DNA from: Candidatus Nomurabacteria bacterium
Lineage (GTDB): Bacteria > Patescibacteriota > Minisyncoccia > Phycocordibacterales > UBA9973
Length of the DNA stretch: 64,000 nt
Assembly (NCBI GenBank): GCA_016699365.1
Contig: CP064973.1
Location: 195 to 64,194, forward strand
Direction of reading: 5' to 3'
Shown here in pieces: positions 2,255-36,911 of this stretch (positions are counted from its first letter, which is position 1; each line of letters opens with the position of its first letter). A model generated the notes under the pieces. That model saw nothing but the letters and a program-made list of their open reading frames with translations. It made no database searches and had not been told where the DNA came from. The translations under genes and the position numbers were made by a program.

Positions 2255-2327
2255 GCGCGGTTAGCTCAGTTGGTAGAGCGACCCCTTGACGTGGGGTAGG
2301 TCAGAGGTTCGAATCCTCTATCGCGCA
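2255..2327 (+). tRNA. tRNA-Val (anticodon GAC)
   Basis: Canonical cloverleaf: GCGCGGT acceptor, D-loop AGTTGGTA, anticodon loop TTGACGT, T-loop TTCGAAT, discriminator A. Confidence 0.9.
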
Positions 2328-2340
2328 CAAAATTTCCGAA

Positions 2341-2499
2341 GGAATATTTTTGCAAGATAAGTGAGCAAACTGCTTTGCTCACGTGAGGATTCAAACAGCG
2401 GAGCTATATTTTTCTAGCAAGAAAAATAAGCGAGCTGGTGCCCAGACAAAACTTTTTGACGAAAAAGTTTTAGTCGAGGGAGAATCCTCTATCGCGCAC
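2341..2499 (+). repeat. tRNA-linked structured element, copy A, ending with a 19-bp direct repeat of the tRNA-Val 3' end (gaatcctctatcgcgcaca, 2481-2499)
   Basis: Three hairpins: gtgagcaaa-CTGC-tttgctcac; tatttttct-AGCA-agaaaaata; aaaacttttt-GACG-aaaaagtttt. Followed by a degenerate T-arm plus acceptor copy. Confidence 0.6.
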
Positions 2500-2634
2500 A
2501 GCGTAAAGAAAAATCTGCATTTCTGCAGATTTTTTAGCTGTGCGAGCCGGAGTCATATTTTTTCAGCAGAAAAAATAGACGAGACAGGGTCGTGAAAATT
2601 TTGTTTTGACGAAAACAAAATTATTCCTGACCCC
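2500..2634 (+). repeat. tRNA-linked structured element, copy B (tandem with copy A)
   Basis: Hairpins aaaaatctgca-TTTC-tgcagatttt; tattttttc-AGCA-gaaaaaata; aaattttgtttt-GACG-aaaacaaaatt. Conserved linkers cagggtcgtgaaaatttt and aaaattattcctgacc are shared with the tRNA-Cys copy. Confidence 0.6.
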
Positions 2635-2640
2635 AAAATT

Positions 2641-2668
2641 AAAACTCGCTATATAGCGAGTTTTTTTA
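2641..2668. terminator. Bidirectional terminator hairpin (actcgctatatagcgagt flanked by A/T runs)
   Basis: Palindrome followed by TTTTTTT on + strand and TTTT on - strand; abuts gmk stop. Confidence 0.55.
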
Positions 2669-3332: not shown

Positions 3333-4004
3333 TTATAACAATTTAAGTAAAATCTCTTCCGAAATTTCCTCGACGGTTTTCTCTCCATCTATTTTATGGA
3401 CACATACGCCAATTTCTTCTAAAAACAAAACAGCATCTCTCACATGCTCATGATAAAAAGAAAGTTTTCTTTTACGAGATTCTGGAGTTGCAGAGTCTTT
3501 CCTTGGAACCTTACCCTCTGACAGCAACTCTAGATTTCTGCGAACCATTCTCTCTTCTGCAACTTCATCACTAACTTTGATGTGAAATACTGTCATCTCT
3601 CTCCCAATACAATCTGTGTACATGCTAAACATAGACCTAGCCTCCTCTTCACTTCTCGGCGATCCATCAATCAGTATATGCCCCTTGCCTTGCCATTGCT
3701 CTAAAACTGCACCTGTCCATTGAGTAATTCCAAAGGCTGGAGATTGTAACCCTCCTGTGTCGTTTATATCAGCAAGTTTTTGACGCATATAATCAGAGTA
3801 CTTTGGAATATTTTGCCTAAAGAGACCTCCAGTTTCCAAATAAAGTTTTTGAAAATCCTCTGGGCTGTATTTCTGAAACATTTCAAGAAGAATTTTCGCT
3901 TGAGTTTCCTTTCCACAAGCTGACTGACCGATAAGTACTATGGTCCGCTCGGTTGAAAATATTTTTCTAAGTGTTTCTGTGTCCTGTATTTTTACTGCTT
4001 CCAT
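3333..4004 (-). CDS. Adenylate kinase-family nucleoside monophosphate kinase
   Basis: GQSACGKETQ resembles the Adk P-loop GxPGxGKGTQ; ILIDGSPRS resembles the DGFPR motif. Confidence 0.6.
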   Translation of the reverse strand: MEAVKIQDTETLRKIFSTERTIVLIGQSACGKETQAKILLEMFQKYSPEDFQKLYLETGGLFRQNIPKYSDYMRQKLADINDTGGLQSPAFGITQWTGAVLEQWQGKGHILIDGSPRSEEEARSMFSMYTDCIGREMTVFHIKVSDEVAEERMVRRNLELLSEGKVPRKDSATPESRKRKLSFYHEHVRDAVLFLEEIGVCVHKIDGEKTVEEISEEILLKLL

Positions 4005-5309: not shown

Positions 5310-7550
5310 ATGAATCCTGAAAATAACATCCCCGAAAAACTACTAAAACCCTACGAACACAAAGAGACAGAATCTCGAATATATAAAGCTTGGGAAGAGA
5401 GTGGTTTTTTCAATCCAGACAAAATGATTGAAACTGGACTCACCTCTCCCGATGCAAAACCTTTCACAATAGTTATGCCTCCACCAAACGTTACTGGAGT
5501 ACTACACATGGGTCACGGACTCATGCTTACAGTTCAGGATATTATGATCCGCTACAAAAGAATGAACGGATTTAGAACTCTCTGGATTCCTGGAACTGAC
5601 CACGCAGCTATTGCAACACAATCAAAAGTAGAAAAAGAAATTCAAAAAAAAGAAGGTCTTTCTCGCCACGATCTAGGGCGTGATGAACTACTCCGAAGAG
5701 TAAATGAATTTGCTCAAGATTCTCACGACACTATAGTTTCCCAAGTTAGAAAAATGGGTTCCTCTTGTGACTGGTCACGAGAAGCTTTTACTCTTGATTC
5801 AACTCGAAACAAGGCGGTAAACACTGTTTTCAAAATGATGTATGATGACGGACTCATATATCGTGGACACAGAATAGTAAACTGGGATCCAAAAGGACAG
5901 ACAACTATTGCTGATGATGAAATAGTTTATGAGGAACGTAAAGGAAAACTTTATACTTTCAAATATTCTCCTGACTTCCCTATTGCAATATCTACAACTC
6001 GCCCAGAAACAAAAGTTGGAGACGTTGCCGTTGCTGTACATCCAAGTGATGAACGATACAAAGAATATGTTGGAAAAACTTTCGAGAACATAGAATTTTG
6101 TGGTGCAAAAATAAATATAAAAGTTATTGCAGACGAATCTGTAGAAAAAGATTTTGGAACTGGAGCGCTCGGAGTAACCCCTGCTCACTCTATGATCGAC
6201 TGGGAAATAGCCGACCGCCACGACCTACCTCGCCCACAAGTTATAAACGAATACGCAAAAATGGTAACAGAAAGCGAACTTCTAAATGGAAAGAAAGTTG
6301 CCGAAGCGCGCGAAATTGTTGTGTCTTGGCTACGCGAAAACAATCTTTTAGAAAAAGAAGAAGATGTAAACCAAAATATCGGAACAGCAGAGCGAACTGG
6401 TGGAGTAGTAGAACCACTTCCAAAACTTCAATGGTTTATAAACGTAAATAAACCAATCCCTGCGCGAGAAAATAAAACACTAAAAGAGATTATGCGTGAA
6501 GCAGTCGCAGGCGGTGGTGTAAAAATAATCCCAGAGTATTTCGACAAGACATATTTCAACTGGATCGACAATCTACGCGACTGGTGCATATCGAGACAAA
6601 TCTGGTACGGACACAGAGTGCCTGTTTGGTACCCTGTTGGTTCTGATTTAGCAGAGAGTTTGCAAAATAGTAAAAGTATCACACATCCAACATTTATTGT
6701 TTCTTCTGAAAATCCTGGAAAAACTGATGGTACAGAAAATAAATGGGTACAAGATCCCGACACTCTCGACACATGGTTCTCTTCTGGTATGTGGACTTTC
6801 TCAACTCTCGGATGGCCTGAAAAAACAAAAGATCTAGAAATTTATCATCCGACAGATGTTCTAGAGACTGGATATGAAATCCTATTCTTCTGGGTTGCTC
6901 GTATGATCATGATGACAGGATATACACTCAACACTATTCCATTCCACACAGTTTACCTAAACGGAACTGTTCGTGACGGACAAGGACGCAAGATGAGTAA
7001 GTCTCTTGGAAATGGAATAGATCCAGTAGAAGTTGCTGATAAATTTGGTGCAGATGCTGGTCGTATGGCTCTCATATTCGGATCAGCTCCAGGTATAGAC
7101 TCACGTATAAGCGACGACAAAATCAAAGGTCAAAGAAACTTCGCAAACAAAGTGTGGAATATTGCTAGATTTGTTCTATCTAATACAAATACCGAAGACA
7201 TAAGTGAAGTACTAAATGACCAAGATAAAAAAATAAGAGAAGAATTCGATATCCTGGTTACAGAGATCTCAAAAGAGATGGATGACCACCTGTATCATGT
7301 TAGCGCTGAAAAAATATATGGATATGTATGGAATACATTTGCTAGTACTCTAATCGAAGAGAGTAAAACAATATTGTCTGGAGATGACGAACAAGCAAAA
7401 AAATCTCGCAAAGTCCTACTTCGTTTAATTTTTACTGATATACTAAAAATACTACATCCATTTATGCCATATGTAACAGAGGAAATCTGGAACCTAATTG
7501 GAGATAGTAAAAACATGTTAATGGTAGAAAAGTGGCCAAGTAAAAAATAA
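5310..7550 (+). CDS. valS: Valine--tRNA ligase (short form lacking the C-terminal coiled coil)
   Basis: PPPNVTGVLHMGHG (HIGH motif), KMSKSLGN (KMSKS motif), editing and anticodon-binding regions. Confidence 0.9.
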   Translation: MNPENNIPEKLLKPYEHKETESRIYKAWEESGFFNPDKMIETGLTSPDAKPFTIVMPPPNVTGVLHMGHGLMLTVQDIMIRYKRMNGFRTLWIPGTDHAAIATQSKVEKEIQKKEGLSRHDLGRDELLRRVNEFAQDSHDTIVSQVRKMGSSCDWSREAFTLDSTRNKAVNTVFKMMYDDGLIYRGHRIVNWDPKGQTTIADDEIVYEERKGKLYTFKYSPDFPIAISTTRPETKVGDVAVAVHPSDERYKEYVGKTFENIEFCGAKINIKVIADESVEKDFGTGALGVTPAHSMIDWEIADRHDLPRPQVINEYAKMVTESELLNGKKVAEAREIVVSWLRENNLLEKEEDVNQNIGTAERTGGVVEPLPKLQWFINVNKPIPARENKTLKEIMREAVAGGGVKIIPEYFDKTYFNWIDNLRDWCISRQIWYGHRVPVWYPVGSDLAESLQNSKSITHPTFIVSSENPGKTDGTENKWVQDPDTLDTWFSSGMWTFSTLGWPEKTKDLEIYHPTDVLETGYEILFFWVARMIMMTGYTLNTIPFHTVYLNGTVRDGQGRKMSKSLGNGIDPVEVADKFGADAGRMALIFGSAPGIDSRISDDKIKGQRNFANKVWNIARFVLSNTNTEDISEVLNDQDKKIREEFDILVTEISKEMDDHLYHVSAEKIYGYVWNTFASTLIEESKTILSGDDEQAKKSRKVLLRLIFTDILKILHPFMPYVTEEIWNLIGDSKNMLMVEKWPSKK

Positions 7551-36363: not shown

Positions 36364-36448
36364 ATATATGAATTATATCAGATTGAAAATAAAATGAACT
36401 ATATAGATATGTTAAAAATAAAAATACCCTTTCAGGCATTTTTATTTT

Positions 36449-36620
36449 GTGGACCCTGCCGGAGTTTCTCCTTCGACTCATTGGTGGTCAGGAATAATTT
36501 TCTCGTCGTCGTTCGAAAATTTTCACGACCCTGACTCGGTATTTCGTATTGCTATACAAAATATACCTGCGTCTTCCACACACTAAAAAATCTCCAGCAG
36601 TGGAGATTTTTTATGTTTGG
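36449..36620 (-). repeat. tRNA-linked structured element, copy C (downstream of tRNA-Cys), ending with a degenerate copy of the tRNA-Cys 3' half (36449-36490)
   Basis: Minus-strand sequence aligns to copy B over about 130 nt: hairpin aaaaaatctcca-CTGC-tggagatttttt, tattttgtat-AGCA-atacgaaata, cagggtcgtgaaaatttt, GACG-containing hairpin, aaaattattcctgacc. Confidence 0.6.
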
Positions 36621-36693
36621 TGGACCCTACCGGATTCGAACCGGTGACCTCCTCATTGCAAATGAGGCGCTCTACCAACTAAGCTAAGGGCCC
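36621..36693 (-). tRNA. tRNA-Cys (anticodon GCA), CCA encoded
   Basis: Cloverleaf GGGCCCT acceptor, anticodon loop TTTGCAA, T-arm ACCGG-TTCGAATC-CGGT, terminal CCA. Confidence 0.9.
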
Positions 36694-36730
36694 AAATATT
36701 TGATATATAAACTACACAAGTCCAAGCTTG

Positions 36731-36806
36731 CTTGCAAATGAGGCGACTATCGTCTACTTGCCAACTAAGCTAAGGGCCCAAATATTTGATATATAAACTA
36801 CACAAG
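36731..36806 (-). repeat. Direct duplicate of the tRNA-Cys 5' half plus about 28 bp of its 5' flank (pseudo-tRNA fragment)
   Basis: ttgcaaatgaggcg...ccaactaagctaagggcccaaatatttgatatataaactacacaag repeats 36655-36720 with a 15-nt substituted block. Confidence 0.6.
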
Positions 36807-36877
36807 CCTACCAAGCAAGGGGCTCGAGTAATACAAAGGCTATTTTACCTTATTTTAGAACAAGTGCAAGTTAAGCT

Positions 36878-36911
36878 TACAAAATTTAAATCCCGATAAA
36901 ATCGGGATTTT
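36878..36911 (-). terminator. Terminator hairpin (aaatcccgat-aaa-atcgggattt) immediately after the GNAT gene stop
   Basis: Hairpin plus T-run on the minus strand. Confidence 0.55.

Follow-up and report, generated by a model that had tools for sequence, protein, structure and literature searches.

The subject here is a stretch of 64,000 nucleotides (nt) from Candidatus Nomurabacteria bacterium (contig CP064973.1, positions 195 to 64,194 of the forward strand), called the window below, and a structured element that lies behind two of its six tRNA genes. The element belongs to a large conserved family of structured non-coding sequences, located in the 3' trailers of tRNA and transfer-messenger RNA (tmRNA) genes of Paceibacteria, which are part of the candidate phyla radiation (CPR). 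The family was previously uncatalogued: it has no Rfam 15 family, and a full-text literature search found no description of such an element. The CPR, or Patescibacteria, have tiny genomes, account for a large part of bacterial diversity and have hardly been studied by experiment.

A copy of the element together with its flanks is called a unit. The general layout starts with the 3' segment of the tRNA itself, called X. Then follow a hairpin, a segment antisense to X, the purine linker GAAA, two core hairpins called P2 and P3, and optionally X', a further copy of the 3' end of the upstream tRNA. The element is around 100 nt long, and its core around 85 nt.

Exactly three matches in the window are found by a covariance model that was built solely from other genomes. 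Two of these, A and B, follow tRNA-Val, and the third, C, follows tRNA-Ala. The genes neighbouring the units are ordinary housekeeping genes; among them is a guanylate kinase gene whose product is identical to proteins of Candidatus Nomurabacteria. The coordinates of all features are listed in Table 1.

Copy C was the starting point. The original prediction placed a third copy of a tRNA-linked element at 36441-36620, and this is upheld by the covariance model. The alignment of this region, read on the minus strand, with copy B (2501-2640) was reproduced by MAFFT. The shared 18-mer CAGGGTCGTGAAAATTTT and 16-mer AAAATTATTCCTGACC each have exactly two exact matches, and for the 18-mer none of 100 shuffles had two. 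The compensatory stem substitutions claimed between B and C are indeed present, in both hairpins. The upstream gene had been called tRNA-Cys, however, and according to both ARAGORN and Rfam it is tRNA-Ala(UGC). The error arose because the anticodon UGC was read as a Cys codon.

In copy C, P2 consists of CGCAG, a hairpin with an AGCA loop, and CGAG. P3 consists of GGGUCGUGA, a hairpin with a GACG loop, a bulged A, and UUCCUGACC. In the fold, the stem of the first hairpin (h1) is extended by UGUGG from the antisense segment, which pairs with the tRNA end CCAC(C)A. On the 3' side of the core come ACCAAUG, then AGUCGAAGGAG-AAACUCCGGCAGGGUCCAC, and then a final hairpin with a U-run, which is probably the terminator. 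Given that positions 36466-36480 match the 3' end of unit A, the tail after copy C is a truncated second unit plus a copy of the tRNA-Ala 3' end. The same tail is also present at two other family loci, L067 and L114.

The degenerate tRNA 3' end that had been noticed behind copy C is real. The two segments are 84% identical over 25 nt at a spacing of 171, and within them the 14-mers tggaccctgccgga and tggaccctaccgga agree at 13 of 14 positions. It had also been claimed that each copy is bracketed by its own tRNA duplicate. The duplicates exist, but the bracketing is not as simple as that: the tRNA-Ala duplicate follows the A-type stump TGAGTCGAAGGAGAA, and the tRNA-Val duplicate sits between A and B and is part of unit A. 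The first observation is therefore partly confirmed, with the element and the repeat standing, the tRNA identity wrong and the bracketing imprecise.

Behind tRNA-Val, the scaffold of unit A starts with a small hairpin and also contains a segment antisense to the acceptor 3' strand (UGCAAGAUA) as well as a hairpin with a CUGC loop at 2361-2382. Its closing helix P1 is GAGGAUUC/GAAUCCUC, and its core is a sub-variant with CCC/GGG in place of GGU/ACC at the base of P3. The exact tRNA copy in unit A runs from T-loop position G57 to A2329, which is one base beyond the end called by ARAGORN. Unit B comprises a hairpin at 2508-2535, the antisense segment UAGCUGUGCG, which pairs with CGCACAGC, and a core at 2548-2632. 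Despite the differing make-up of the units, the distance from tRNA 3' segment to downstream copy is 171 nt at both loci (2311 to 2482, and 36634 to 36463).

Table 1. Features of the two tRNA loci that carry the element, in window coordinates.
Feature	Position	Strand	Evidence
tRNA-Val(GAC)	2255-2328	+	ARAGORN; Rfam; 3' segment X = 2311-2329 (repeat D1)
Scaffold of unit A	2329-2385	+	sequence; fold; kept in L001, L003, L007
Unit A, variant core	2386-2489	+	covariance model, 60.6 bits, E = 1.8e-13
X' of unit A, exact 19-nt copy of tRNA-Val 3' end	2482-2500	+	repeat search D1, 100%, spacing 171
Unit B	2508-2640	+	model match 2535-2640 at 82.2 bits; pattern match; fold
Terminator hairpin closing the tRNA-Val locus	2641-2664	+	terminator scan; alignment; common to relatives
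tRNA-Ala(UGC), CCA encoded	36618-36693	-	ARAGORN; Rfam tRNA 73.9 bits
X: T-stem and acceptor 3' strand of tRNA-Ala plus first trailer bases (direct-repeat copy 1)	36610-36634	-	repeat search, family D2
Hairpin h1: 13-bp perfect stem, CUGC loop, flanking A-run and U-run	36584-36613	-	inverted repeat I2; fold
Antisense-X GUGUGUGG and purine junction J1/2 (AAGA) into core	36572-36583	-	covariance-model alignment; column analysis
Core of copy C, 86 nt, two hairpins	36486-36571	-	pattern match; model; covariation
Model match of copy C	36478-36584	-	covariance model, 82.0 bits, E = 7.6e-19
3' stump of a second, A-type unit (UGAGUCGAAGGAGAA)	36466-36480	-	matches unit A 2470-2484, 1 mismatch
X': degenerate copy of tRNA-Ala 3' end and trailer start	36439-36463	-	direct repeat D2
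Terminal hairpin with U-run, counterpart of h1 in a next, partial unit	36415-36448	-	inverted repeat I1; fold

The core of the family is a three-way junction, on which an anchored column analysis (n = 119) and RNAalifold (77 sequences) agree. The closing helix P1 is formed by the 5 to 11 nt on the 5' side of the purine linker, which pair with the first nucleotides 3' of the core. The junction strands are G-A-A-A between P1 and P2 (J1/2) and R-G between P2 and P3 (J2/3). P2 has a 3-bp base, G-N-C/G-N'-C, followed by an internal loop (GSA/GA) and then by a stem that carries an AU bulge. P3 has a GGU/ACC base, pairs that include G.U and C-G, an invariant bulged A and a variable stem.

The covariation is unusually clean. 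At the base of P2, the N:N' pair is 95% Watson-Crick over four pair types, and in the column analysis single pairs reach 95-100% with three or four pair types. RNAalifold reports 29 pairs, 21 of them with compensatory changes. Overall, 91.1% of cells are paired, versus 36-48% if the 3' partners are slid by one to three columns, and the covariation score is 0.62, versus 0.07-0.13 with slid partners. None of 500 shuffles reaches the observed values. Wobble usage in the core helices, with 79 G.U against 13 A.C, is consistent with RNA of the tRNA-sense strand.

Some unusual, conserved tetraloops recur: CUGC in the upstream hairpin (47 of 121 members), AGCA in P2, and GACG or GUCA in P3. In the window the CUGC loops lie at 36597-36600 and 2370-2373. 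UGCU and AGCA are complementary, so a contact between the CUGC hairpin and the AGCA loop is possible in copies A and C; many units have other loops. In addition, the three core columns b7, b14 and c1 change together: 89 sequences have (G,C,G), the other 30 have (A,U,C), and no third state occurs. In the window these columns are at 36532, 36525 and 36491, and at 2586, 2593 and 2627. The b7:b14 combination is 100% Watson-Crick, even though in the main fold the partner of b14 is c1. A base triple may account for this, or else an alternative register (CAGG/CCUG).

The wider family was found with a core pattern derived from five copies: CGSAG, a hairpin, YGAGNCRGGGTMGYGA, a hairpin, and STGACC. Species-representative genomes, metagenomes from the Joint Genome Institute (JGI) and 2.9 million viral contigs were scanned, and loci were compared as 8-kb stretches. 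The pattern matches at least 120 genome stretches and at least 120 JGI metagenome stretches, and counts for these two collections are among the matches listed. Nearly all of the genome matches are from Patescibacteria/Paceibacterota. Lineages with the core include Nomura-, Kaiser-, Adler-, Yonath-, Vogel-, Taylor- and Zambryskibacteria, among others. Across the family, covariance-model matches have E-values of 1e-13 to 1e-22. The viral contigs yield only two pattern matches.

A few matches do not belong. Three from GC-rich genomes outside Patescibacteria (L062, L082 and L138) and one viral match (L146) have no covariance-model match and are chance hits. Conversely, the loci L048 and L071 come from metagenome-assembled genomes labelled Patiriisocius sp. 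and Elusimicrobiota, and hold one to three bona fide units behind tRNAs; these are probably CPR contigs that were binned into the wrong genomes. The other viral match, L145 (IMG/VR, 34.7 kb, classed viral), has two tandem units at the contig end (2840-3319) with tRNA-Ser-like 3' copies between them, and no tRNA was detected in the stretch examined. The contigs of the metagenome matches are ordinary, from 1 kb to 780 kb, and some are from Hainich groundwater samples. No small circular contigs are among them.

Units almost always lie 12-100 nt 3' of a tRNA or tmRNA on the same strand. Within the genome set, 93 of 128 distinct cores have such a gene at most 400 nt upstream, with modes at 48 and around 70 nt. 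A further 13 cores are at a locus edge, and two apparent orphans turned out to lie behind tmRNA genes not called by ARAGORN. The metagenome set, which is independent, gives 61 of 66 assessable cores, at a median distance of 63 nt. The upstream genes cover all 20 isotypes as well as tmRNA. At three loci (L028, L029 and L030) units lie between the tRNAs of one operon, and at L029 three of four tRNAs have one. By the model, several units can be present per 8-kb locus. There is one odd arrangement, at L127 (7447-7700), where a unit adjoins the 5' end of an opposite-strand tRNA-Lys, and X is the reverse complement of the acceptor 5' strand (…GGCGCA).

Cores do not follow isotype. The nearest neighbour of a core is behind a tRNA of the same isotype in 12 of 70 cases, versus about 9% expected by chance, which speaks against vertical inheritance per tRNA locus. 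Core B, for example, is 98% identical to a core in another species.

The tRNA-derived flanks come in two types. Directly after the core, 46 of 90 family units repeat 8 nt or more of the 3' part of the upstream tRNA without a mismatch, and the repeat length ranges from about 3 to 30 nt. In type I units X' usually runs from T-loop position G57 to the last base of the tRNA, and at times continues into the trailer: the repeat is 30 nt at L077 and 28 nt at L037. The 25-nt repeat at the tRNA-Ala locus also reaches into the trailer. The repeat of type II units, B and C among them, consists only of the discriminator base and the first trailer bases (ACAAA or ACCAAA). Across species, and behind different tRNAs, type II units conserve the trailer and hairpin beside the tRNA, and therefore the trailer belongs to the element.

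Every unit also has a segment that is antisense to the same tRNA region, on the 5' side of the purine linker. Pairing of this segment with X' is predicted to close the three-way junction. Many type I units add an antisense acceptor segment and a CUGC hairpin, which together with X' rebuild a stack that resembles an acceptor and T-arm. By sequence and fold, this mimic is present in unit A and in many type I units, but not in type II units such as B and C.

Strains differ in their units. At tRNA-Val, 150 nt are missing from L003, a 95% relative, and these are precisely the ones that separate two 12-nt TTTTGACGAAAA repeats, one in unit A and one in unit B. In L007, a 99% relative, there is a single unit in which the core has been swapped for a different family member, between identical flanks. 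In the 78% relative L001 the same scaffold holds another, small core, and pieces of further cores are also present. At tRNA-Ala, the 97% relative L017 is without the A-type tail, and has an open reading frame (ORF) of 119 amino acids with a DUF4440 domain between the tRNA and a ...GTCCAC remnant, after which the element follows. Arrays and partial units occur in the family. Among the relatives compared, which differ in unit number, core or cassette, no completely empty tRNA-Val or tRNA-Ala site was recovered.

Two of these relatives deserve some detail. The ORF in L017 (1754-2165) is promoterless, is inserted exactly at the tRNA-Ala 3' end, ends in ...CATAGTCCAC, which is a short tRNA-end repeat, and pushes the element downstream. 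From its sequence, it looks like a gene cassette that uses the same insertion point. The features of note in L001 lie at 3700-3880 and 5833-6594. Behind tRNA-Val, the scaffold (antisense acceptor segment, CUGC hairpin, GAGGAUUCGAAAGA ... GAUUCCUCUAUC) surrounds a smaller two-hairpin core that the covariance model does not detect, and P3 hairpin fragments follow. This relative also has a gene for a large serine recombinase, which overlaps tRNA-Glu at its 3' end.

What the element does is a matter of weighing. The favoured reading is that of a co-transcribed structured RNA module, anchored on tRNA 3' ends, with tRNA-like ends of its own, that multiplies by recombination. Its probability is put at about one half. 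The unit would be transcribed by read-through together with the tRNA, as suggested by the shared strand, the distance of 12-100 nt and the units between operon tRNAs. It would then fold and act as RNA, and because its ends resemble those of a tRNA, the enzymes that process tRNA ends would release it and make it stable. The units would multiply and be reshuffled as repeated tRNA 3' segments, and also cores, recombine with one another. Arrays and truncated units would result, as would swapped cores and a spread to every isotype. Unequal crossing-over and Campbell-type insertion of a circular unit at X would be equivalent routes.

Several observations weigh against this. The hairpin right after the tRNA, with its A-run, stem and U-run, looks like an intrinsic terminator, and could stop transcription before the core is reached. 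Pairing in the closing helix with X' reaches only about 77%, and about one fifth to one half of units have a degenerate X' or none, so the three-way junction is not always closed in cis. The pattern fixes many core bases, so that the 'invariant' positions are partly a matter of ascertainment; matches found by the model alone do vary at such positions, and at the a5:b1 pair, for example, A-U replaces G-C as a compensatory change. Integrase-mediated insertion produces just such direct repeats, which stop precisely where the tRNA gene stops. Finally, conservation of structure only, with bulged bases, is also known from single-stranded DNA recombination sites such as integron attC.

The last two points lead to a rival in which the element is DNA. 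It would be a miniature, non-autonomous integrative element, a small circle, possibly single-stranded, with X, the antisense segment and the core on it, that recombines at the T-loop or 3' end of tRNA and tmRNA genes by means of a site-specific recombinase encoded by the host. X and X' would be attL and attR, and the hairpins would be DNA recombination structures or mimic the duplex of the target. The original prediction similarly read the repeats as site-specific insertion at tRNA 3' ends. A good deal of the data agrees. The repeats of type I units begin in the T-loop and those of type II units at the acceptor end, and both reach as far as the end of the gene. About half of the units have an X', usually from G57 to the end, and all isotypes are used, with tmRNA as a further target. 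The flanking direct repeats and the intact tRNA are the segment duplication that marks tRNA-targeting integrative elements. The conserved trailer, the arrays and partial units, the cores not bound to isotype, and the cassette at the same spot in L017 also fit. Strains with 95-99% identical flanking genes indeed differ in unit number and content, although no fully empty site turned up.

Yet insertion as such falls short. Units are 100-250 nt long and non-coding, without any ORF, and no integrase or transposase is found in or near them. All-against-all clustering of 1,296 ORFs from about 120 loci showed no recurrent integrase, transposase, recombinase or reverse transcriptase near units. The clusters are of housekeeping genes only, each in at most nine loci, and a Xer-like recombinase cluster occurs in four of the approximately 120. 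The wobbles are RNA-like, the junction nucleotides are invariant across a class-level clade with a covarying core, and assessable units are co-oriented with, and close to, a transcribed RNA gene. The near absence from viral contigs and the lack of small circular contigs in the metagenome matches also count against a circulating DNA element. The antisense tRNA copy in each unit is unexplained by a simple insertion model. All this makes the DNA element unlikely, if a serious contender.

A less likely reading still is that the unit is a cis-acting device for the maturation of the upstream tRNA. The antisense segment would tie up the T-arm and acceptor 3' strand by forming a long helix with them, which may serve as a processing stalk for RNase III, while X' would be a decoy that frees the tRNA, with the core binding a protein or ligand to set the balance. 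The pairing energies are in its favour. The mean duplex energy of the antisense segment is -17.6 kcal/mol with X, -15.4 with X', and -12.5 with an unrelated X as control. X is the better partner in 35 units and X' in 17, with 27 similar. The helices with X are near-perfect, at around 17 to 25 bp, and minimum-free-energy folds of whole loci often join X with the antisense segment, and the tRNA 5' half with the distal X'. The conservation of the junction is also riboswitch-like. But only two of the six window tRNAs carry a unit, and units are lost or swapped between near-identical strains, so they are dispensable for any given tRNA. In addition, some units persist without an intact upstream tRNA, and tandem and truncated units are hard to square with a tuned switch.

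Further down the scale, and improbable, the loci may be genomic images of an RNA-level mobile or self-processing element. In this scenario a new ribozyme, or a junction that recruits a protein, would use the antisense segment as a guide, invade the T-arm or acceptor 3' strand of a tRNA or tmRNA, and cut or join between C56 and G57 or at the acceptor end. The unit-length, possibly circular RNAs that result would have tRNA-like ends and be copied back into DNA at tRNA genes. Were it true, bacteria would have a tRNA-guided equivalent of viroid-like or retrozyme elements.

Related to this is the idea of a catalytic or circular RNA as such, which we rate as very unlikely. Here a ribozyme would cut, and perhaps join, at the P3/P1 boundary between C and G57, or the unit would be an intron-like insert in the T-loop. 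This would give rise to unit-length, possibly circular RNAs, and the genomic copy would be a more-than-unit-length image of the circle. Both candidate junctions do share the context CGAWUCC, with the proposed cut after the first C, and both are at a multi-helix junction. The terminal redundancy of X and X', at times into the trailer (L077, L037 and the tRNA-Ala locus), is also as expected, and there is a precedent in the theta ribozymes behind tRNAs (PMC10879173). Against it, no known ribozyme class is matched in Rfam, and the hammerhead mapping failed. In none of the 31 units that lack a detected upstream tRNA did a join of X' to any upstream position produce a tRNA, so no tRNA is split by the element there. 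A type II junction, at the last bases of the tRNA, would also make no sense for an intron.

That these are ordinary tRNA trailers, terminators or chance similarities has a negligible probability: the first and last hairpins do resemble intrinsic terminators, but the E-values, the hundreds of homologues with compensatory changes and the tRNA linkage in two collections refute it.

Known families were compared as well. Over the whole window, only the six tRNAs pass Rfam 15 in gathering mode, and in E-value mode (E ≤ 10) over 2200-2700 and 36380-36900, everything except tRNA scores far below gathering level. Exact look-ups of two window proteins gave no record.

A number of candidates could be set aside. 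The self-cleaving ribozymes (hammerhead, HDV-like/theta, twister, pistol, hatchet and hairpin, where HDV is hepatitis delta virus) have no Rfam match at E ≤ 10, and the fold here is a plain three-way junction. In manual comparisons, the GAAA, RG and absent third junction strands do not map onto the hammerhead core, and for HDV-like and K-turn/box C/D structures the junctions, internal loops and strand lengths are unfit. A tRNA intron, of group I or another kind, was rejected, as upstream tRNAs are complete, there is no Rfam intron match and none of the 31 units without a detected upstream tRNA splits one. A plain intrinsic terminator fits the first and last hairpins, but not the covarying two-hairpin core of some 85 nt between them. 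For IS110 bridge RNA, TnpB/IscB omega RNA and retron msr-msd, no partner gene lies beside the window units or recurs in the approximately 120 loci. A phage origin was dropped with the two pattern matches in the viral collection, of which L146 is unconfirmed by the model.

Judged by analogy, the closest genomic precedent is the attL/attR pair of integrase islands, and the closest functional one is the theta ribozymes behind phage tRNAs. Islands and prophages that use tyrosine integrases in tRNA genes have attL and attR as direct repeats of the tRNA 3' end. Work by Williams in 2002 is said to distinguish two classical crossover sublocations for tRNA-targeting integrases, which the type I and type II repeats would match. 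Like such islands in tRNA and tmRNA genes, the element sits at the 3' part of the gene, leaves the tRNA intact and has a direct copy at its far side. Unlike them, it is only about 100-250 nt long, has no integrase or other gene, and has both an antisense tRNA segment and a deeply conserved RNA-type three-way junction.

Theta ribozymes are minimal HDV-like ribozymes that lie 3' of phage tRNAs (PMC10879173). The likeness is that of a compact structured RNA on the same strand, just behind a tRNA and presumably co-transcribed. The fold described there is a nested double pseudoknot, in contrast to the three-way junction here, which lies at a median of 50-70 nt from the tRNA. The hosts differ too, phages there versus CPR bacteria here, and there is no HDV-type match in Rfam.

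The tRNA mimics, such as the tRNA-like domain of tmRNA, viral 3' tRNA-like structures and YrlA, share the rebuilt acceptor- and T-arm-like helices seen in many units. In the units these helices are composed of an antisense strand and the tRNA 3' copy, ending at the discriminator base or CCA. The differences are that units copy whichever tRNA adjoins, that the T-loop is replaced by a large two-hairpin domain, and that many units, namely type II ones such as C, lack the acceptor mimic and have no more than a short closing helix.

Integron attC sites, repetitive extragenic palindromes (REP) and miniature inverted-repeat transposable elements (MITE) are likewise multi-copy, non-coding, located 3' of genes, conserved in structure with bulges and arranged in arrays. 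As with attC, small promoterless ORF cassettes are sometimes adjacent to units (L017). The element differs by having three helices instead of one hairpin, by being anchored to tRNA and tmRNA 3' ends, by its RNA-like wobbles and by the lack of any integron integrase or RAYT-like (REP-associated transposase) gene. With its repeats of about 3-30 nt and no recurring cognate enzyme gene in the 8-kb loci, it was not assigned to these groups.

As a multi-copy, class-wide family with hundreds of examples, this would be one of very few CPR-specific RNA classes. The design is unusual, with a core framed by sense and antisense copies of the adjoining tRNA, and ties it to tRNA maturation, mimicry or tRNA-targeted mobility. 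The family also explains why CPR genomes have tRNA 3'-end fragments and long 'intergenic' regions beside tRNAs, and CPR contigs that were binned wrongly can be recognised by it.

Some further observations were made in the window. On the 5' side of tRNA-Ala there is a tandem duplication with a period of 86 nt (36675-36806, minus strand), involving the promoter region and the 5' part of the tRNA. It includes an exact 46-nt repeat at 36675-36720 and 36761-36806, and a 14-nt repeat that spans the anticodon stem. What lies in the upstream copy is a pseudo 5' half, in which the D-arm is scrambled. This duplication is not present in L017.

On the 3' side of tRNA-Glu, at 280-372 on the minus strand, a 33-nt hairpin (CUAGUUCGAGCACUCGACAAGGGUCGAAACUAG) and a terminator are followed by a small XRE-type helix-turn-helix gene at 52-258. 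By the covariance model, this hairpin is not a family member.

The CCA end is encoded by tRNA-Ala alone. The five other tRNA genes of the window are without it, and CCA addition must therefore be enzymatic in this organism.

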